Under the pieces are notes generated by a model, which did not search any database, was not told the DNA's origin, and saw only the letters and a program-made list of their open reading frames with translations. Positions 4,295-56,305 of a stretch of 64,000 nt of DNA are shown here, piece by piece. The first letter of the stretch is position 1, and each line of letters begins with the position of its first letter. The translations under genes were made by a program, and so were the position numbers. The stretch lies in IMG/VR virus record IMGVR_UViG_3300045988_100041, one strand, 5' to 3'. This stretch comes from a virus.

Positions 4295-5067
4295 CCGTTA
4301 AAGAGTACAAGGAATGGTTGACTGACAGAAAAGAACATTGCCTTGCGAGACTCAGCCGCTATGAAAATGGCAAAGACCGCAATATGGGGAAAGCGGTTGC
4401 ATTTGAGGAATGCTTTGATAAGTGCCCGGATTCCTTTGAAGATGACGCAAGATCACAAGCCGATAGTAGTTCCATTGCGGCGGAGACTGCTTACACAATG
4501 GAAAAAATCAAAGAATTGCGCGAGGATATGGCTTCCAAAATCCAGTCTAACACAGACAAAATGGAAAATCTCAAGAAGCAGCTCAAGGAATCGAAGGAAC
4601 GAGCTGACAACGGCTGGGAGCGGGTTCATTATCTGGAACGAAAACTTAGGAATACAGAGGCGTTGAACGATCAACTGCTACTGGAACTTGCACGCAGACA
4701 GAATGCGGATGAATCTGGAAAAGTGAAGTATATTACAGTCGGAAAGCCGGAAATCTATATCGGCGGTGAAAAGGCTGGAAATTGTACCGTGACATTGCTT
4801 GACCTGAAACAAACAATTCCGCTGATGCAAAGCGAGGACTATAAGGAGCGGTTCATTGCGGAGTGGGCGCAGACGAAAATTCGGCTCAGTAAGCTGAACC
4901 GGATGCTCTTACGGTACTATGATGGGACACTTGATTTCGCGCCGACGTGTCCGACGCTTTTGCTTGAGAAGCAGTCTCTTGCAATGCAACAGTATCTCGA
5001 TATGCTGGAAATCCGTGCAGCGATTGAGAATGTTGAACTTCCGACTGGTAAGCTGATGGACTGCTGA
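4291..5067 (+). CDS. Coiled-coil hypothetical protein
   Basis: ATGA overlap with the upstream stop; GGAGG RBS. The central region is heptad-like (KIKELREDMASKIQSNTDKMENLKKQLKESKE). Confidence 0.6.
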   Translation: MTVKEYKEWLTDRKEHCLARLSRYENGKDRNMGKAVAFEECFDKCPDSFEDDARSQADSSSIAAETAYTMEKIKELREDMASKIQSNTDKMENLKKQLKESKERADNGWERVHYLERKLRNTEALNDQLLLELARRQNADESGKVKYITVGKPEIYIGGEKAGNCTVTLLDLKQTIPLMQSEDYKERFIAEWAQTKIRLSKLNRMLLRYYDGTLDFAPTCPTLLLEKQSLAMQQYLDMLEIRAAIENVELPTGKLMDC

Positions 5068-5137
5068 TAAACTCAGCACTGGAAGGAAAGAACCTGACCG
5101 GTTTAGCTGGCATCAAAGCATAAAAATACAATTTCTA

Positions 5138-6237: not shown

Positions 6238-8088
6238 ATGGCACGACGGGCAGGAAAAGTATGGTCGCCCGGCGTCGGCTGGGTTTCCAAACGGGAAGTT
6301 GAACAGAGAGACTATTCTTCGTTTGAATCAGAATGGTGGGCGTTTCTGGTCTGGGTGATTCGGTGGTATCCGGATAAAGGATGTGACCTTTTCCGGGACG
6401 AATACGCAGATTACGCAAACGAAGAAATCATGCAGCGGCTTATGATGCGGGCGTATGCGCGGTACGCGGACGTCGCATTTACAGGAACGCGAGGCATCAC
6501 AAAGACAAACACGAAATTCAAATATGAGCTGCTGGATGGTTTGGTATGGCCGGGAACGCAGAGCGCGTATTACGGACCGTCGTACAAGCAAATGGCAGCG
6601 ATTGGAAGCAAACAGTTCAAGCAAATCGCACATGACTATCCATCCCTTACAAAAGGATGGCGGATCACGGCAGAGAGTAAGGACGATTTTAAGATCGAGA
6701 CGGATTTAGGGAGTGCATTTTACATCTCCGCATTTCGTGGTGATAACATCCACTGCGTAACGGCGGAAGAATTTGCGCAGGAAGAAAACCCACCGTTTGA
6801 TTTTACGGAATACTCCACGATTGTTTTGCCGGCAGTTCGTTTGCGGCACAACGTAAACGGAAAACCGGATGAAAACTTCGTATCCTACAAAAACCATTCT
6901 ATCACAAGCGCAGGAAGAAAGCAGCACCCGTCGTTCCAGGTACGCTGTGAAACAATGAAAGAAATGCAGCGCGGCGAAAGCGCGTTCGCATACGACATGA
7001 GCTGGGAATGCGTTGTTTTACAGCAAATGCGTCCTTATTCGTGGGCACAGAAGCTGCGGACGAAGCTGACACCGGAGCGATGGATGCGGGAAATGGAATC
7101 GCGCTATACCGGCGCGGACGAATATCCGATCATCTCGGACGAAACGCTTTCGGAGAGCTGCTGCTTGCAGACGATGGAGCGGCAGCACATCTGCAAATAT
7201 CCGGGATACAAGACAGACCCGAAGGACGTTATTTACGTTGTCTGCTACGACGTATCATATGAGGACGCGAAGAAGAACGCAAAGTGCGCGTGCGGCGTGT
7301 GGAAGCTCACGAAGCAGACGGACTTTCTAAAGCGCGACAGGTACTTAAAACAGCTCGTGTGGCTCGATGACTGGCCGCCACCGGACAACGCCATGAAGCA
7401 GGCAAGGCGGCTGAAAGACGTATGGTATCGGTTCTGCTTTGACGGCGGAAATACGACGTATATCGCAATCGACGGATGGCAGTACGGCAAGGCGGTTATT
7501 GAGGACTTGATGAAGGATCTCGGAGATGGACTTCCGCCGCTTTGCGTGTTAGACCACGCGGAATATACGGCGCTGGAACTCGACGGGGCGCTTCCGGTCA
7601 TTTACCCCATCAAGGCGGGCGGCACGGGCGTTACTGACCCGGACGCGGAGATGATCCGGTACGCGCAGATCCAGTTTGACAACCATAATGTGCAGCTTCT
7701 GACGATGAACACCAGAGAGGGCGTTGAAAGTTACAAACGCATGCACAGAATCAAAGACGATGACATGGACTATCAGATCGCGAGACCGTATCAGAAAACG
7801 CGGGAGCTTTCCGGACAGATTCAGAACCTGAAAGCGGTTCCATCCGGCTCGGGCGTCAGCGAGAAACGGATTTCGAAGTCGATACAGCGAGATAGCTGGT
7901 CGGCAATCAAATACGGCTTGCGGCTGGCGCAGAGGCTCGAACGGGCGCTTGCTATCAGCGCGGCGAGAAAGAAAAGCGACTGGGACGAAGAACTCGAAAA
8001 GTTCAGAGGGCAAAGCGCAACGGCGACCGCCGCACCGCACGGAACAGGCCGGATGGTCACGACACGTCGGGGAGGACGATTGTACTGA
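6238..8088 (+). CDS. terL: Terminase large subunit
   Basis: 616 aa, with a deviant Walker-A-like FTGTRGITKT near the N-terminus. Size and position directly upstream of the portal are typical. Confidence 0.75.
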   Translation: MARRAGKVWSPGVGWVSKREVEQRDYSSFESEWWAFLVWVIRWYPDKGCDLFRDEYADYANEEIMQRLMMRAYARYADVAFTGTRGITKTNTKFKYELLDGLVWPGTQSAYYGPSYKQMAAIGSKQFKQIAHDYPSLTKGWRITAESKDDFKIETDLGSAFYISAFRGDNIHCVTAEEFAQEENPPFDFTEYSTIVLPAVRLRHNVNGKPDENFVSYKNHSITSAGRKQHPSFQVRCETMKEMQRGESAFAYDMSWECVVLQQMRPYSWAQKLRTKLTPERWMREMESRYTGADEYPIISDETLSESCCLQTMERQHICKYPGYKTDPKDVIYVVCYDVSYEDAKKNAKCACGVWKLTKQTDFLKRDRYLKQLVWLDDWPPPDNAMKQARRLKDVWYRFCFDGGNTTYIAIDGWQYGKAVIEDLMKDLGDGLPPLCVLDHAEYTALELDGALPVIYPIKAGGTGVTDPDAEMIRYAQIQFDNHNVQLLTMNTREGVESYKRMHRIKDDDMDYQIARPYQKTRELSGQIQNLKAVPSGSGVSEKRISKSIQRDSWSAIKYGLRLAQRLERALAISAARKKSDWDEELEKFRGQSATATAAPHGTGRMVTTRRGGRLY

Positions 8089-8480: not shown

Positions 8481-10188
8481 GTCTTTTCCGGAGATTTTCG
8501 GTCGATTTCGGAAACTGGCGGCAGAGAATCAGGGAATGCCGATGGCAAGCATTGTATCGGCGTTTGCAGGCATCAACTCCGGGCGCTACGGCATGGCGAA
8601 CCCGTATATCCAGAACCGCCGCGTAAAGCAGATTTCTTCGCTTCCCGCAAACTACACAAAAGACAAGGTTGCGGAAATGCTGACAAGCCCGTATGAGAAT
8701 GAAAAGCCGCTTCGTCAGGTGGGGCATATTCTGGAATATACGGCGTATCCGCTGTTTCATATCCGCAAGACCTATCAGAATCTTTTGACCTACCACAGCT
8801 ATATCGCGCCGAACTTTGTATCGGAAAGCGATATGAAGAAGGACGATTTCTGGCGGGAATACAAGTTGGCAGAAAAGCTCCGGCAGGAGTTTTGCCCGAA
8901 GGAAACGGCACATCAGATCGTTGGGCAGGTCGGAACGGAAGGGAAGGTATTTTACTATCCCAGATACAGCGTAGACAAGAGCCACAACAAGGTTGACTAC
9001 GCATTTTTGCAGCAGCTGCCGTCTGACTGGACGAAGATTACGGGATTCAACAATATTTCGAAGTACACGGTTGCCTTTAACATGATGTACTTCTTACAGC
9101 CGGGATGTGTGCCTGAACAGTTTGGAGATCTGTTTACACCGTATCTCTATGACTTCGCGCAGGTTGTGGAAGCGCCCAAAAAGGCGGACAAGTCGCTTGT
9201 TTTTGCGCAGAAGCGCATTGACATCGGAAAGTTCCGCGCGATTCAGCAGGGACGAGACTTGGTTGGAACGCCGGATGTCTACTATCAGAACGGAAGATGG
9301 TATTATTGGGTGTATCTGCCGCCTGAAAAGGTGTTTACCTTTGAGGCAGACGATGCAAGCAGGACGGCAATCTCGCCGTTTGCAGGACTTTTCCTGAACA
9401 TGATACAGCTGGCGCAGATGGAGCAGATCCAGTTGGAGTTGATTCAAAATCCCCTCGTCAGCCTTCTGCATGGAGAAATCCCGTACAGAGATGAAAAGGT
9501 CGCAACGGACGATGACCAATACAGACTCAGCAACGCAGGGCGGCTTCTTTTTGAAACGCTATGGTATCAGATGCTGTTTGAAAACAACACAAGCGGTATC
9601 GGGCTGTATCTTGCGCCGGTTGAAAACATGAAGCTGGAAAGTCTGTCCGAAGCGCCGTCTGCCATGGATATTGTGAAGCAGGGCTATTCCGATACGATGT
9701 CGCAGGCCGGCATGGGCGCTATTATCCCACTGGGAGACGATACAAGAGCCGCAACGGCACAGATCTCCTTGCAGATTGAAAGCAAGTTCATGGAATGCGT
9801 TTACCGCGACTATGAGCGGATGATGAACGCGATTCTCAAGAGCCTCAACCTCAAGTATGACTTCCGGTTCCGGATGTTTGGAAATCTTGCAGAGGACGAA
9901 AAGACGATGGAACGCGCGATGAAGGGCATGGAGCACGGGATTCTGCCGGATACCTTCTTATACAATGCGCTGCTGGACCGGTCGGTGCTGGATGACATCT
10001 GCTTGTCTGACGCAGTATTTGCAAGCGGCGTGATGGATAAGCGGCTTCCGCTCGTCACATCGTACAGCGCAAAGCAGGACACTTCCAATCTTCCACCGCA
10101 AAAGCAGGGCAGACCCAAAGGGGACGGAGCGGTAACGACAGACGGCTCGGAGGGCGTGATTGACCAATATGGAGCGACAAATGACTGA
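8440..10188 (+). CDS. Portal protein
   Basis: 582 aa. ATG 8440 follows AAGGAGG. Size and position between terminase and scaffold/capsid genes. Confidence 0.7.
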   Translation: MAIPKEELNKVQYESFPEIFGRFRKLAAENQGMPMASIVSAFAGINSGRYGMANPYIQNRRVKQISSLPANYTKDKVAEMLTSPYENEKPLRQVGHILEYTAYPLFHIRKTYQNLLTYHSYIAPNFVSESDMKKDDFWREYKLAEKLRQEFCPKETAHQIVGQVGTEGKVFYYPRYSVDKSHNKVDYAFLQQLPSDWTKITGFNNISKYTVAFNMMYFLQPGCVPEQFGDLFTPYLYDFAQVVEAPKKADKSLVFAQKRIDIGKFRAIQQGRDLVGTPDVYYQNGRWYYWVYLPPEKVFTFEADDASRTAISPFAGLFLNMIQLAQMEQIQLELIQNPLVSLLHGEIPYRDEKVATDDDQYRLSNAGRLLFETLWYQMLFENNTSGIGLYLAPVENMKLESLSEAPSAMDIVKQGYSDTMSQAGMGAIIPLGDDTRAATAQISLQIESKFMECVYRDYERMMNAILKSLNLKYDFRFRMFGNLAEDEKTMERAMKGMEHGILPDTFLYNALLDRSVLDDICLSDAVFASGVMDKRLPLVTSYSAKQDTSNLPPQKQGRPKGDGAVTTDGSEGVIDQYGATND

Positions 10189-38365: not shown

Positions 38366-38394
38366 ATTCTACCGGGAATTTTCAGTTGTCCCGC
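38366..38394 (-). promoter_or_regulatory. GCGGGACA-N15-TAGAAT promoter-like box (copy a)
   Basis: - strand reads GCGGGACAACTGAAAATTCCCGGTAGAAT. It overlaps the 3' end of the desulfurase gene and lies ~45 nt upstream of the 38319 start. Confidence 0.45.
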
Positions 38395-39491
38395 TTTGCG
38401 GAAAGATTTTTCAGTTCTTTCACACACTGCGCAGTGATTTTCACTGCTTCATCGATCTTGGCAAAGTCTTTTTCCTGTTCGGCTCCGAATCTTGGCTGAT
38501 ATTCGTCCATCGGAAGCCGGAGCGTATAGTCAAAAGAAAACCGGACGGCGCTTCGGGCGCGTTCTTCCTGGTATCCAGCGGCAAGCAGGACTCTCGACGG
38601 CTTATTGTCTCCGCTGGAACACGCCGCACCGCCAGACACCATGACATTCTCAGAAGAAAGTCTCAGGACAAGGGCGGTATTTTCAACGCCTGGGAACGAG
38701 ATATTTGCGATATAGGGAGACTGCGAAGATTTGTTTCCTTCGTAGACGCTGCCGTTTAATTTTGCGTCCGGGATCTCGTTCATCATACCATCAATGAGCC
38801 GGTCGTGCAAGCGGCCTGCCATTTCTGCAAACTCCGCAAGATGCTGTGTCCGGAACCAGAGCGCCTGAGAAAACGCCGCAGCGAGTGCGACAGAAGGGGT
38901 TGCGAAATGTTCCAGTTCATAGATGCTTTCCGGATCTTTTGCAATCAGAACACCGATGCCGACGGGCGCGCCGAATTTATGGCCGCCGCCTGCAATGTAG
39001 TCGATTCCGTCCGACTTGTAATTGAGCTGGAATTTTCCCATGGCTGCGGTGCAGTCGGAAAAGCATACATTCCACGCGCCTGTGTTTTCTAGGTCGTAAA
39101 TGAATCCGGTTTCGTTGCAGGTGTGGATATGCGCAAGAGCGGCTTCTTTTTTGCGGGACCTGCTGTGAATCTTACCGTAATCGGGAAGTCTTTTATAGAC
39201 TGCGTCGTGTTCGTAGGAAGAACAAAGCGCGTCTCGATAATCGTTCAGGAGGCGAAGCGCTGCAAGGCGGCAGCTTTCGGTGGCGCTGGATGTGAAGATG
39301 ACCTGCTCCGGTTCGCAGTTTATGCACGCTGCGACGATTTTTTTCTGTTCCTGCAAAAAGGCGTTGTTTCTTGTCCCGCTTGCGTGGATGCTGTTTGGAT
39401 TCCCGACTTCACCACGGCATACCCTTGCAAATTCGCGCATGGATGAGGAAAGCACCGGCGATGTGGCTGCGTAGTCGAGGTAGATCAGCAT
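38382..39491 (-). CDS. Class V aminotransferase / cysteine desulfurase (NifS/IscS-like)
   Basis: 369 aa. IYLDYAATSP N-terminus, PLP-lysine motif GGHKFGAPVGIG, active-site loop SGGAACSSG, and His in SSYEHDAV. Confidence 0.85.
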   Translation of the reverse strand: MLIYLDYAATSPVLSSSMREFARVCRGEVGNPNSIHASGTRNNAFLQEQKKIVAACINCEPEQVIFTSSATESCRLAALRLLNDYRDALCSSYEHDAVYKRLPDYGKIHSRSRKKEAALAHIHTCNETGFIYDLENTGAWNVCFSDCTAAMGKFQLNYKSDGIDYIAGGGHKFGAPVGIGVLIAKDPESIYELEHFATPSVALAAAFSQALWFRTQHLAEFAEMAGRLHDRLIDGMMNEIPDAKLNGSVYEGNKSSQSPYIANISFPGVENTALVLRLSSENVMVSGGAACSSGDNKPSRVLLAAGYQEERARSAVRFSFDYTLRLPMDEYQPRFGAEQEKDFAKIDEAVKITAQCVKELKNLSAKRDN

Positions 39492-40000
39492 GGCGCGGTC
39501 CCTCCGAAGTTTGGAACGAAGGAAGAAAGAAGCTGATGATAGAACTTATTTTGCGCCTGCAGCTCAATGCACCGCTCTTTCAGCGAGGATAGTTCTGCGT
39601 CCGGTTCTTTGGAAACGGGAAGCACGCCGGAAGGCCCCGGATTTTTGGGTTCATTTGCGCCGCTCAGACCGATGGACACCAGAAGGGCGCTGTCTACGAG
39701 CTGCATTTCATGCTGCTCCAAGGTCGAGATATAGCTTCCAAGGCGTTCTTTGCTGACGGTATAGATGTTTTCACACAGGACGGTATTTTTCACGCCTTTC
39801 ATTGTGATTTCCACGTGCGTCGGAAGGGGCTTTTTCTTCTCTGCGGTCGTTAAGTAGCAGATCTCTATGTTCGGAGAAAATAGGTTATTTTTCTCGTTTG
39901 AAACGACAACGGCAGGTCTTGACTTGCGAATTTCACTTCCAAGCCCGTCTTTCCAGTTATCTACCCAGAAAATATCGCCGCGATGGATGCTACGTTCCAT
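39485..40000 (-). CDS. MazF/PemK-family endoribonuclease-like protein with ~60-aa C-terminal extension
   Basis: RGDIFWVD...RKSRPAVVVSN...CYLTT...THVEI...VLCENIYTVSKERL matches the PemK fold pattern. An extra coiled-coil tail (ELSSLKERCIELQAQNKFYHQLL) follows. The stop overlaps the desulfurase start (ATGCTGA). Confidence 0.7.
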   Translation of the reverse strand: MERSIHRGDIFWVDNWKDGLGSEIRKSRPAVVVSNEKNNLFSPNIEICYLTTAEKKKPLPTHVEITMKGVKNTVLCENIYTVSKERLGSYISTLEQHEMQLVDSALLVSIGLSGANEPKNPGPSGVLPVSKEPDAELSSLKERCIELQAQNKFYHQLLSSFVPNFGGTAPC

Positions 40001-40101
40001 TTCTTTCGTCCTTTCTTTCACATTTTTCTATGTACGGCGGCACGTCCGCACGATATGCCGCCTATTCAGTTTAATTGCGTTTGAACTGAATATTGAGGGT
40101 G

Positions 40102-41021: not shown

Positions 41022-41345
41022 TCAGATTTTTGCGGTACAGCGGTATTTGCAGGTTTTCCAGTCCGCGAGGCTGCACGACTCGAAGATGCAGGGTGATCCG
41101 GCGTACTCCGGCTTGTCGCAGAATTCGTGGATCAGCTCCGGATACAGGGCGTTCATTGCAAAAAGGTTTCTTGCCGAATCCGGCCCGACAAACATCGGCT
41201 TTCCTTTCGGTGCGTAGTCACGGATCTGATAGGGGATTTCGTCCCGTTCGCTGTAGAAATGGACCGCGACCGGCGTCACGTCCTTCTCTACGACGACGTA
41301 GACATTTTTCGTGCCGTTGGTGAGATAGCGAATGTCCAAGCTCAT
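41022..41345 (-). CDS. Hypothetical 107-aa protein embedded in the RNA island (C-terminal Cys cluster)
   Basis: Strong RBS AAGGAGGAAAACAAATG. MSLDIRYLTNGTKNVYVVVEKD...CDKPEYAGSPCIFESCSLADWKTCKYRC. Confidence 0.6.
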   Translation of the reverse strand: MSLDIRYLTNGTKNVYVVVEKDVTPVAVHFYSERDEIPYQIRDYAPKGKPMFVGPDSARNLFAMNALYPELIHEFCDKPEYAGSPCIFESCSLADWKTCKYRCTAKI

Positions 41346-41713
41346 TTGTTTTCCTCCTTGCTTTGTTTTCTTGGTTTTGTACAGCCTGCCTCCCGGCTCC
41401 GGAGCCGCCGTTACTCGACGCCTAGACGCTCCCGTGCAGAAGTTGGTCTGCGTCGCCACGCCGGTTTTTCTTCCATCCTTTACGCCTCACAGCGGACTGT
41501 CGGAAGGCCGGGAGGGTAAGCCACGGAACTTTTCAGCCCTGCGCCGGTGCATCGGTCGCATCCGTTTTTTCACACATTAAGCCGGAGCCAGCTAATTAAA
41601 TTCGCAATCTGTCGTACTTGCACTACCTACAGATTGAGCGGATGGCCGGATATATCGTTTCACCAAGCCTTTGGAACCTCAAAACTTTCCCTGAGTCCGC
41701 CGCAATACCCATG
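41346..41713 (-). other. 368-nt GC-rich leader/non-coding segment between tRNA-Gly and the 41345 CDS
   Basis: No credible ORF; many local helices (e.g. GGCTCCGGAGCC at ~41394-41405). Function unknown. Confidence 0.3.
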
Positions 41714-41787
41714 TGGAGTGCGTGAGGAGAATCGAACTCCCACCATCAGATTGGAAGTCTGATGTTCTGCCATTAAACTACACGCAC
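41714..41787 (-). tRNA. tRNA-Gly (anticodon TCC), copy 1
   Basis: GTGCGTG/CACGCAC acceptor, TCAGA-CTTCCAA-TCTGA anticodon arm, GGGAG-TTCGATT-CTCCT T arm, U73, CCA encoded. Confidence 0.85.
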
Positions 41788-41794
41788 ATAAATG

Positions 41795-41916
41795 GCTCCC
41801 CGTTTTACTCCGGTGCGGGAGCGTTCTTCCCGAAAACCCATAGCCAGGCTTCCCAGCTTGGAGCACCGGAATCTCTGAAATGTTCCGGTGAGCGCCTTCG
41901 CTTACATGGGTGACGC
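41795..41916. ncRNA. Repeated structured element X, copy 1 (122 nt)
   Basis: ~84% identical to 42126..42239. Shared helices carry compensatory changes; details are in the findings. Strand unresolved. Confidence 0.5.
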
Positions 41917-41927
41917 TTTAAAGAGTA

Positions 41928-42001
41928 TGGAGCGGCATACGGGAGTTGAACCCGCGTTTTCAGATTGGAAGTCTGACGTGCTTCCGCTGCACCAATGCCG
42001 C
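41928..42001 (-). tRNA. tRNA-Gly (anticodon TCC), copy 2
   Basis: GCGGCAT/ATGCCGC acceptor, anticodon arm identical to copy 1, GCGGG-TTCAACT-CCCGT T arm, U73, CCA encoded. Only ~60% identical to copy 1 outside the anticodon arm. Confidence 0.85.
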
Positions 42002-42125
42002 ATAAGGCGCGCATAGGATGGAAGAGGTACAAGACCATCCCATGCACTTCCGGTCTTTCCCGGCTGCCAGAACAATCCCTATGGAGGGGCAGGCGGGAGG
42101 CTCGTGAACCACTGCCTGCATAGAA

Positions 42126-42239
42126 GCTCCCCATTTTACTTGGGTGCGGGAGCGCTCCTACCCAAAACCAACAGCCAAGCTTCCCATCTTGGAGCGCCGG
42201 ACGATTCCGGCGAGCGCCTGCGCTTACGTTGGCGGTCGC
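42126..42239. ncRNA. Repeated structured element X, copy 2 (114 nt)
   Basis: Paralog of 41795..41916, with a shortened hairpin loop and compensated stem positions. Confidence 0.5.
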
Positions 42240-42300
42240 TTTTCTGCACAGAAAGGAGACATTACGCCTCGCCGCAGCAGCACAGAAGGGAGCTGCGGCA

Positions 42301-42371
42301 TGGTGGGAAAATGCGGAATTGAACCGCAGCATGAAGGCTTTATGTTCCTCCCTAGCGCACCTGCTTTTCCC
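42301..42371 (-). ncRNA. 71-nt tRNA-like minihelix RNA or attP-type tRNA remnant next to the integrase
   Basis: - strand: GGGAAAA...TGCGG-TTCAATT-CCGCA-TTTTCCC-A-CCA gives a perfect acceptor and T arm. There is no canonical D arm or anticodon arm. Confidence 0.4.
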
Positions 42372-42400
42372 GCATGGCGTGACGGGTCACGCCTTGTTTT

Positions 42401-43501
42401 CTATGCGATCTCCGACCGGCTTTTTTTGACGGTAGGCTGCGGCCGGAGGTTTGAGAAAAAATCATCGCCCTGCATTTCAAGATACCGCTTGTTGCGGTCT
42501 GCCTGACGGTCTTTTTCTTCCTGCACAAGAAGCGTCTGGCGGCGTTTCCTGCGGCTGGTGAGTTTGCCGGAATAGATCTGCGTGACTTCTGCCGATTCAT
42601 GCCCGAGCTTTGCTTGCAGTTCTTCCAGAGGCATGCCGCCGTTGAGATCGAGCCGCGCGCCGACGTGCCGCAGGTCGTGGGACCGGACATTATCTACACC
42701 TGTCACGCGCTTTACATGGCGGCGGACAAGCTCTGTCAGCCATTGACGGCTGCCGGCGTGCCAGGATTCTGCGTTGAAGTTTCTGGACGTTCTGACTTTT
42801 TCTGCGCAGGTTCCAAAGAGCGGGTCATCGTCTTTTGCATAGGAAGGGCGGATGCCGCTTTTAAGATAGAGCCTTACGGCGGTCTGCGCGATGGGCGGGA
42901 AGTCTACAACGCGGTATTTGTTGCCCTTGCCGTGCTCTACGGTCAGCTCTTCGTTTTCCCAGTCCAAGTCGGCAGGCGTGAGGGCGAGAAGTTCGCAGTT
43001 TCTGATCTCTGTGGACAGAAACAGGACGGCGATTGCATAGTTTCGCTCCCATTCCGGAACGCCGCTTGATTTTGGGGAGTTGTTCCGCCACAAAAGTGCC
43101 GCCTGTTCGTCGGTCAGAATCTGGTCATAGGGTCTTGCATCTTCCTGACGGGTGTCCGGCATGAGGAATTTGGAGACGGGGTTTTTGTCATAAAAGCGGT
43201 AGTCTCCAAGCTGGGGAGACGAGGCGTATTCATAAAATCCGGAAAGAACTTTCAGATACTGCTTGACGGTGGACGGTTTTCTGCCGGTTGCAAGCAGCAT
43301 ATCACGCCACGCCTGAATGTCTGTGAAGGATACCTCGTGGTTCCAGTTGTCCCGATCTTCAATCATAAAGAGGCTGAACAGTTTTATCACGTTGTCGATA
43401 TTTTCAACCGTATTTTCTGAGCGCCCGATGGCGATCATGTTTGAACGGTAGGAACGGTAGGCTTCCATGAACTTCTTTTCTTCCTTGATGGGCGGTGCCA
43501 T
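42401..43501 (-). CDS. int: Tyrosine recombinase / phage integrase
   Basis: 366 aa. N-terminal SAM-like core-binding region, and a C-terminal catalytic pattern ...R...HDLRHVGA...LGHESAEVTQIYSG (R-H-R-H/Y). Confidence 0.9.
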   Translation of the reverse strand: MAPPIKEEKKFMEAYRSYRSNMIAIGRSENTVENIDNVIKLFSLFMIEDRDNWNHEVSFTDIQAWRDMLLATGRKPSTVKQYLKVLSGFYEYASSPQLGDYRFYDKNPVSKFLMPDTRQEDARPYDQILTDEQAALLWRNNSPKSSGVPEWERNYAIAVLFLSTEIRNCELLALTPADLDWENEELTVEHGKGNKYRVVDFPPIAQTAVRLYLKSGIRPSYAKDDDPLFGTCAEKVRTSRNFNAESWHAGSRQWLTELVRRHVKRVTGVDNVRSHDLRHVGARLDLNGGMPLEELQAKLGHESAEVTQIYSGKLTSRRKRRQTLLVQEEKDRQADRNKRYLEMQGDDFFSNLRPQPTVKKSRSEIA

Positions 43502-56214: not shown

Positions 56215-56305
56215 TACCGGCCGCCCCGGACACCCTAGCAGAGCCGCACCGGGCACCAAAGCGGCCCCGCCCCATCAAATAAAACGAAAAAGGAGATCAT
56301 CACCA

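Follow-up and report, generated by a model that had tools for sequence, protein, structure and literature searches.

The window considered here, the whole 64,000-nt stretch of DNA in IMG/VR record IMGVR_UViG_3300045988_100041, belongs to a tailed phage. Its genes include those for a portal protein, a tape-measure protein, an amidase and an endonuclease I/HIRAN protein, and relatives of the portal protein are found mainly in metagenome-assembled genomes of Eubacteriales. Approximately 1 kb of the window (positions 41346-42400) has no credible protein-coding gene and carries two genes for tRNA-Gly(UCC) on the minus strand. Beside these tRNA genes lies the subject of this study, a duplicated element that I will call X, with copies X1 and X2. 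Read along the minus strand, the order is the stop codon of an integrase gene, a palindromic hairpin, a tRNA-like element (42371-42301), a second hairpin, a hairpin designated P0, X2 (42242-42126), a spacer of 124 nt, tRNA-Gly2, X1 (41919-41795), 7 nt, and tRNA-Gly1, after which come about 330 nt of conserved non-coding sequence and then a small open reading frame (ORF). Both tRNA genes were called by ARAGORN and have their CCA ends encoded: type 1 (tRNA-Gly1, 41714-41787, 71.5 bits with the Rfam tRNA model) lies 7 nt downstream of X1, and type 2 (tRNA-Gly2, 41928-42001, 68.8 bits) lies 124 nt downstream of X2. X1 (AAAGCG...GGGAGC) fills exactly the gap from the 3' end of tRNA-Gly2 to 7 nt before tRNA-Gly1. 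X1 scores 152 bits with R1, a covariance model of the element, a match by construction since X1 is in the seed alignment. X is one of several predicted structured modules set among tRNA and tRNA-like genes, in what may be called an RNA island downstream of the integrase gene.

A preliminary description of this DNA, made from its letters alone, singled out X as a repeat better conserved than the adjacent tRNA genes. The identity of approximately 84% reported there for the two copies was reproduced by global alignment (95 of 113 aligned positions; one hairpin loop has an indel of 9 nt), and a repeat finder returned two direct-repeat blocks, 41795-41870 with 42126-42201 (84%) and 41883-41910 with 42205-42232 (86%). 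The two tRNA-Gly genes are indeed less alike, at about 65-69% overall; leaving aside the anticodon arm, which is identical, they agree at 31 of 59 positions (53%). Judged from related phages, the cause of the difference is an ordinary one, since the tRNA-Gly genes represent two divergent types and the X copies are homologous. The two tRNA-Gly types (~65% identical) occur as alternative alleles among related phages, and one type of X was found joined to either of them, with breakpoints at the X/tRNA boundary. The window is therefore best read, so far as sequence can tell, as a tandem of two cassettes, X2-spacer-tRNA-Gly2 and X1-tRNA-Gly1. It is the only one among the loci found to carry two copies of X. 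One contig (from ERZ1034680; the locus is at 9756-9898), 99% identical to the window downstream of tRNA-Gly1, has a single chimeric X that resembles X2 up to GUAAAA and X1 beyond, as expected of the recombinant or deletion form that recombination between tandem X copies would produce.

Homologues of X were sought by pattern scans, followed by BLAST and covariance-model filtering. This search, of the kind that had been proposed as a check, yielded approximately 90 copies with more than 50 distinct sequences, all in IMG/VR and human-gut metagenome contigs of 40-120 kb: 31 contigs from IMG/VR and 49 metagenome contigs of roughly 80-120 kb, the latter from human gut samples where a source is named. 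The main alignment of X comprises 82 copies, of which 50 are distinct in sequence, and several diverged copies (L354, L355, L369, L376, L381 and the pair L404/L406) were found later. No homologue was present in GenBank phages, where only the tRNA itself matched, and the representative genomes of GTDB gave chance matches only. No family of Rfam 15 matched X, either in a scan of the window at gathering thresholds or in a scan of 41300-42500 admitting E-values up to 10, a result that covers riboswitches, the hammerhead, twister, twister-sister, pistol and hatchet ribozymes, T-box, EAR, YrlA, ROOL and GOLLD. Nine related loci, compared with Rfam at E-values up to 0.5 or 1, gave only tRNA-clan matches and sub-threshold matches that appear to be due to chance. 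The motif is not described in the literature searched, but a large catalogue of candidate RNAs from IMG/VR (PMC10690425) could include it. The distribution of X is narrow: one lineage of gut phages, plus one stray pseudoknot considered below.

The comparison of homologues indicates that X is a real and previously uncatalogued folded RNA, a predicted four-way junction with an optional H-type pseudoknot on its 3' side. Applied without guidance to a plain MAFFT alignment, RNAalifold predicts the junction with its four helices, P1 through P4. The closing stem P1 (5-6 bp) is followed by the junction nucleotides GUA; P2 (AGCG-NAGG-CGCU) is invariant; P3 (7-11 bp, with a loop of 4, 7 or 11 nt) is followed by the junction nucleotides CU; and P4 (6 bp, with the loop U-GNRA-A, the tetranucleotide being GGGA or GAGA) is followed by CY and the return strand of P1. 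The junction of X1 occupies 41837-41910 on the minus strand, with P1 (CCCAU/AUGGG), P2 at 41891-41902 (AGCG-AAGG-CGCU), P3 at 41864-41890 (8 bp, 11-nt loop) and P4 at 41844-41861 (CCAAGC-UGGGAA-GCCUGG). That of X2 occupies 42168-42232, with P2 at 42213-42224, P3 at 42195-42212 (7 bp, 4-nt loop) and P4 at 42175-42192. Changes on both sides of a pair are seen in 14 of 28 junction pairs (three in P1, four in P3, five in P4 and two in P0), a number reached in none of 500 shuffles. Canonical pairs fill 97.4% of the cells, diverged copies included, as against 35-46% after a shift of the partners by 1-3 columns. The alignment behind the 97.4% and the 14 of 28 was fitted to the model, and an unfitted alignment shows the same picture.

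These results bear out the core of the preliminary description, namely a conserved and structured element whose compensatory changes are genuine, and revise some of its parts. The hairpin it had recognized from a compensatory difference between the copies (CACCGGA/TCCGGTG in X1, CGCCGGA/TCCGGCG in X2) is P3, and the homologues support it: the pair in question is G.U in 35, A-U in 8 and G-C in 5 of the 50 distinct sequences. Two helices had been overlooked, P1, which differs between X1 and X2 (CCAAC/GUUGG in the latter) by two compensatory changes, and the invariant P2. A proposed stem GCTTC/GGAGC finds no support, as the homologues form P4 in its place (minus strand CCAAGC/GCUUGG), in at least seven covarying versions. 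The T-G pair in that stem, thought to be a wobble pair on the plus strand, amounts to a single A.C mismatch in P4 that is private to X1; a 98%-identical relative has G-C there. The functional strand, which had been left undecided, is the minus strand, as it is for the tRNA genes, because G.U pairs dominate on that strand and would be A.C mismatches on the other. The alignment has 109 G.U cells and 47 A.C cells, most of the latter arising from alignment shifts, and these counts rule out the plus strand as the functional one.

In most copies the pseudoknot lies 3' of P1. Its first stem, S1, has 4 bp and occurs in the versions UCGG/CCGG, UGGG/CCCA, UUGG/CCAA, CGGU/GCCG and CAGG/CCUG; the helix described earlier as CGG/CCG in one copy and GGGT/ACCC in the other is this stem. 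Its second, S2, has 6 bp (GCUCCC/GGGAGC) and covaries to GCACCC/GGGUGC by way of a G.U intermediate, GCGCCC/GGGUGC. That pairing, too, had been foreseen, together with the H-type topology it implies, and in the homologues substitutions keep S1 and S2 paired just as they do P3. Loop 1 is 7 nt, loop 2 is 3 nt and loop 3 is A-rich (NGUAAAAYN). In X1 the pseudoknot spans 41795-41836, with S1 UCGG/CCGG, loop 1 GAAGAAC, S2 formed by GCUCCC (41817-41822) with GGGAGC (41795-41800), and the A-rich loop 3 AGUAAAACG; three pairs of S1 and one of S2 covary. The X2 pseudoknot is at 42126-42167. An extension of the first stem (S1a, UUU/AAA) alongside S2 was considered and rejected as sterically implausible. 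Because it would leave only 2 nt to cross a stem of 8 bp, the run of A residues probably forms loop 3 instead.

Pseudoknots also characterize the RNAs of type III toxin-antitoxin systems, as tandem repeats of 34-48 nt directly upstream of a ToxN/CptN/AbiE-type toxin gene. That arrangement is not found here: there is one pseudoknot per locus in approximately 90 contigs, and the nearest toxin-like gene in the window encodes a MazF/PemK homologue 1.7 kb away, with other genes between. That homologue (178 amino acids, 39485-40021, minus strand) has no recognizable antitoxin adjacent to it, and its upstream neighbor encodes an HU-like DNA-binding protein.

X has the marks of a structured non-coding RNA in its compensatory helices, its strand-specific G.U pairs and its lack of a conserved ORF. 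A protein-coding role was rejected, since on either strand every reading frame is interrupted in at least one variant. On the plus strand the sequence AGAAAGGAGG resembles a Shine-Dalgarno sequence, and it was likewise set aside as such, being followed by unrelated short ORFs in the window and in its relatives. Just before X, in nearly all homologues, lies the P0 region, which in most of them reads CCUCCUUUCU, a sequence that matches exactly the 3' end of Firmicute 16S rRNA. The P0 hairpin is made from half of it, and its plus strand resembles a perfect ribosome-binding site, after which inspection showed no conserved ORF. In the window, P0 (UUUCU-GUGC-AGAAA, with CUCC before it) lies at 42241-42259 on the minus strand; UUUCU is invariant, and U.G pairs occur in 7 distinct sequences. 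The hairpin is absent from X1. An all-against-all covariation scan of the X alignment for additional tertiary pairs gave none that could be distinguished, swamped as it was by phylogenetic signal. Pairing of the 5' strand of P1 with the CAUGGGU trailer of the tRNA was also considered and rejected, as the trailer stays unchanged when P1 covaries.

X is not one unit but two separable modules, the junction and the pseudoknot. The pseudoknot is cleanly deleted (a loss of about 43 nt) in 17 of the 82 copies, leaving the junction 6 nt from the tRNA. The loop of P3 is also variable, 4 nt instead of 11 nt in X2 and in one other copy (L318). L404 and L406 have the junction without the pseudoknot, and with new sequences that keep the pairing in P1 (CCCGC/GCGGG) and P3 (CACCAUGUGCA/UGCAUUUGGUG); here some 300 nt separate the junction from the tRNA, and the segment inserted between them has a TTGACA promoter-like sequence. 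The converse case is L360, an unrelated viral contig of 37 kb (IMGVR_UViG_3300032038_000289), which has the pseudoknot and a small P1-like hairpin without P2-P4. It is the sole exception among the hits of looser pseudoknot patterns, which were otherwise coincidences within coding regions. In L360 the pseudoknot is flanked by two tRNA-like genes, the second of which begins 4 nt downstream. Both of these genes (within 411-710) have insertions of 30-60 nt in the anticodon region, and one scores 45 bits with the Rfam tRNA model.

The link between X and tRNA-Gly(UCC) is close. The tRNA gene comes next on the same strand in 80 of the 82 copies, the remaining two being cut by contig ends. It is at most 7 nt away in 68 copies, and in 12 it is separated from X by a structured spacer of 120-145 nt. 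No extra copies of the pseudoknot were found upstream of other tRNAs in the related loci examined.

What X does can be proposed only tentatively. The explanation I favor, with a probability of about 0.42, is that X is an independent small structured RNA released from a tRNA precursor by the enzymes that process tRNA. The island would be transcribed on the minus strand as a polycistronic precursor containing the tRNA-like element, X, tRNA-Gly(UCC) and the 320-nt RNA that follows. RNase P would produce the 3' end of X by cutting where tRNA-Gly begins, 4-7 nt past the pseudoknot, and the 5' end would come from 3' processing of the preceding tRNA or tRNA-like element. Once released, the folded X, some 90-150 nt in length, would accumulate as a small stable RNA acting independently, with a protein or another RNA as its most plausible binding partner, and the pseudoknot might serve as a nuclease-resistant 3' cap. 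I prefer this to a purely cis-acting tRNA leader because the junction survives separation from the tRNA (as in L404 and in the copies with spacers), because it survives a swap of the tRNA type, and because small RNAs matured by tRNA enzymes have precedent, while structured leaders dedicated to one tRNA have, to my knowledge, not been described in bacteria.

Several considerations weigh on the other side. Wherever X is intact, the tRNA downstream of it is tRNA-Gly(UCC), and none of the Met, Pro and Gln tRNAs in these phages is preceded by an intact copy. This exclusive association, together with the pseudoknot 4 nt from a tRNA in L360, is explained no less well by a role in cis. The homologues of X all come from one phage lineage, so the linkage could be simply inherited gene order. 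No partner protein (Ro60/Rsr, RtcB, an RNA ligase or the like) is recognizable in the window. The folding energies of the single sequences are unremarkable on the minus strand, with z-scores of -0.85 and -0.77, and the plus strand does somewhat better (-2.1 and -2.4). Finally, the sequence comparisons establish the strand, the fold, the modular make-up, the linkage to the tRNA gene and the lack of a match to known families, whereas transcription and co-transcription of X, its processing by RNases P and Z, its stability and its action in trans are all steps that I infer.

The foremost alternative is that X is a 5' leader acting in cis on tRNA-Gly(UCC), controlling its folding, its processing by RNase P, its 5' stability or read-through transcription, and having no role once removed. 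I regard this as unlikely, despite the 80 of 82 copies that precede tRNA-Gly(UCC) (68 of them within 7 nt), the separate X given to each tRNA-Gly of the tandem, the breakpoints that fall exactly at the X/tRNA boundary and so preserve adjacency when the tRNA type changes, the like position of the pseudoknot in L360, and the absence of X from other tRNAs of the same phages. A leader of this kind sits poorly with the 12 copies that stand 120-145 nt from the tRNA, with the still more distant junction of L404/L406 behind its promoter-like insert, and with the 17 copies that have lost the pseudoknot beside an unchanged tRNA. Nor is there a terminator or other expression platform between X and the tRNA, or any covarying complementarity between the two. 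The loop of P4 (GGGA or GAGA) was considered for T-box-like codon pairing with the tRNA-Gly anticodon and rejected, as it varies while the anticodon loop is constant and as it fits a GNRA tetraloop. T-boxes do share with X the character of a structured leader tied to one tRNA species, but they are found upstream of genes for aminoacyl-tRNA synthetases or amino-acid metabolism rather than of a tRNA gene. X has no specifier loop, T-box sequence, terminator/antiterminator or Rfam match to the family, and the GGA-like triplet in its P4 loop is not conserved. A larger unit is conceivable, in which X, the embedded tRNA-Gly(UCC) and the 320-nt RNA that follows (called Z) form a new class of multi-domain phage RNA, similar to GOLLD and ROOL in genomic habit. 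ROOL and GOLLD are RNAs of phages and prophages, often near tRNA islands and of unknown function, and in GOLLD the 5' region varies, the 3' region is conserved and the linker may hold tRNAs (PMC12286853). The likeness lies in the position of X within a tRNA island, followed by a tRNA and by Z, itself conserved and covarying and directly after tRNA-Gly; in single-copy relatives X, tRNA and Z come to about 550 nt, the size of ROOL. I consider the idea quite improbable, and equally so the functions it would suggest, that junction and pseudoknot present the tRNA, control its release or help to assemble a higher-order RNA particle. More distant phages (L402/L407, L405 and L408) have Z but no X, an insertion parts X from tRNA-Gly and Z in L404, and X, at only 75-125 nt, is also found apart from the downstream domain. 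Rfam gave no match to GOLLD or ROOL, and no covarying long-range pairing between X and Z was seen, in a scan that covered the X alignment only, with X-Z complementarity judged by eye.

The shape of X suggests a different possibility, a mimic derived from tRNA that serves as decoy or substrate for factors that bind tRNA, such as RNase P, modification enzymes or host anticodon nucleases. The topology is that of a cloverleaf, with a P2 of 4 bp like the D stem and with P1 and P4 together making 11-12 bp, like the stack of acceptor and T stems, and X sits within an array of tRNA and tRNA-like genes. The resemblance goes little further, and I would put small faith in it. The Rfam tRNA models do not match X at E-values up to 10 (the tRNA-Gly genes score 69-72 bits), and ARAGORN calls X neither a tRNA nor a tmRNA, whether with standard settings or with thresholds lowered to 80% (-ps80) and introns allowed. 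There is no T-loop sequence, no anticodon loop and no CCA end; the "D loop" is 4 nt; the junction spacers are unlike those of tRNA; P3 has 7-11 bp, and its loop (4, 7 or 11 nt) holds no conserved anticodon triplet; P1 has just 5-6 bp; and the loop of P4 is U-GNRA-A. The tRNA-like structures at the 3' ends of plant viruses such as TMV and TYMV have upstream pseudoknots and are 3'-terminal in RNA genomes, and the X locus similarly sets a pseudoknot directly beside a tRNA-shaped structure. It would be more surprising still if X were a ligand-sensing aptamer or a self-cleaving ribozyme, even though its compact pseudoknot (third loop A-rich), its GNRA-capped junction and its invariant P2 are typical features of such RNAs and the same phage has a RAGATH-5 motif. 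The aptamers of preQ1-I and SAM-II are H-type pseudoknots with a short stem 1, a loop that pairs downstream and an A-rich third loop. The X pseudoknot has the same topology, and its third loop could sit in the minor groove of stem 1. It differs in its dimensions (S1 4 bp, loop 1 7 nt, S2 6 bp, loop 3 9 nt) and in having no coupled ribosome-binding site or terminator. No riboswitch or ribozyme family, these two included, matches X at E-values up to 10, X has no expression platform, and natural variants can dispense with the pseudoknot and the P3 loop; a new class would still be conceivable. Least credible is action as DNA, with X as part of an integrase attachment site or as a recombination hotspot whose hairpins form in DNA. 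X is within 150-300 bp of the end of the integrase gene and its two copies have evidently recombined, as the chimera attests. The strand asymmetry of G.U/G.T pairing and the covariation over five helices and the pseudoknot, however, point to a single-stranded transcript, and X keeps to the tRNA gene, not to a fixed position relative to the integrase gene.

To return to the small RNA released from a tRNA precursor, the nearest known parallels are rnaC (species 1, 139 nt) and rnaD (species 2, 119 nt), which adjoin the tRNA-Arg gene of phage T4. They are small stable RNAs matured along with tRNAs, and their function is still unknown (PMC9697503). X resembles them as a small non-tRNA RNA gene adjoining a tRNA gene on the same strand within a phage tRNA cluster, but it lies upstream of tRNA-Gly, whereas they lie downstream of tRNA-Arg, and the host is presumed to be among the gut Clostridia rather than E. 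coli. Model R1, run with filters off on T4 positions 69500-74500, gave a best score of 5 bits and no hit at rnaC or rnaD. X may be classed as a new family among the structured RNAs of unknown function associated with phage tRNA clusters, because it fails as a tRNA, as a member of any Rfam family and as a relative of T4 rnaC and rnaD; what it shares with that company is only their genomic habit.

Phage tRNA islands have repeatedly yielded structured RNAs of unknown role, T4 rnaC and rnaD for fifty years and ROOL and GOLLD lately. Within this group X is a small and probably tractable case, with a well-supported fold, natural deletion variants and a strict tie to one tRNA species. Were X to act on the maturation of tRNA-Gly, it would be a rare instance of an RNA element dedicated to regulating a tRNA gene; were it a free small RNA, it would be a new phage-encoded effector in abundant phages of human-gut Clostridia. 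Interest would rise sharply if X proved to control tRNA-Gly or to belong to a larger RNA that embeds the tRNA. A locus with both X and the more widely distributed Z is a good entry point to the roles of RNA islands.

Z, a second unclassified candidate structured RNA of approximately 320 nt (41380-41713, minus strand), comes right after tRNA-Gly1. RNAalifold predicts 89 pairs in it among close relatives. A core of 60 nt (GAACGGAUGCGACCGAUGCACCGGCGCAGGGCUGAAAAGUUCCGUG) stays invariant as far as more distant phages, and 28 predicted pairs covary. In the three distant lineages examined, Z follows a tRNA or tRNA-like gene and X is absent. Neither the Rfam scan of 41300-42500 nor that of the related loci gave a match to Z. 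Z is spread more widely than X and may perhaps be the more important element.

At the other end of the island, the tyrosine integrase gene (42401-43501, minus strand; Pfam Phage_integrase, E = 1e-16) is transcribed towards the RNA genes. Directly after its stop codon, at 42301-42371 on the minus strand, is the tRNA-like element. Its acceptor stem, of 7 bp, covaries between relatives, and it has a T arm and ends in ACCA, but its middle is aberrant. It scores 15.7 bits with the tRNA-Sec model (E = 6.7), was not called by ARAGORN, and in a search for a host tRNA its 3' half found no exact match in GTDB genomes. It may be derived from an attachment site. The islands of relatives have near-threshold tRNA-Sec-like matches (gathering score 47): L142 at 7860-7942 (44 bits) and L211 at 5022-5104 (39.6 bits), both on the minus strand. 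The window itself has a gene for a class-V aminotransferase at 38382-39491.

The spacer between X2 and tRNA-Gly2 (42002-42125, minus strand) appears to be structured as well, its hairpins being judged by inspection rather than by statistics. By eye, its hairpins GCAGGC/GCCUGC and CCGG-GAAAGA-CCGG, the latter with AAGUGC, recur upstream of tRNAs in related phages, with stems that covary, and the GAAAGA-loop hairpin with AAGUGC was seen in related and more distant phages alike (L211, L404, L405 and L408). Phages of the type of L182 have an insert of 160 nt after tRNA-Gly (8173-8332 in L182), with an 11-bp closing stem and an ACCA end; by inspection it looks like another structured RNA with a tRNA-like end. 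Well away from the island, the RAGATH-5 RNA motif lies at 56226-56281 on the plus strand, with a score of 54.2 bits against a gathering score of 50.

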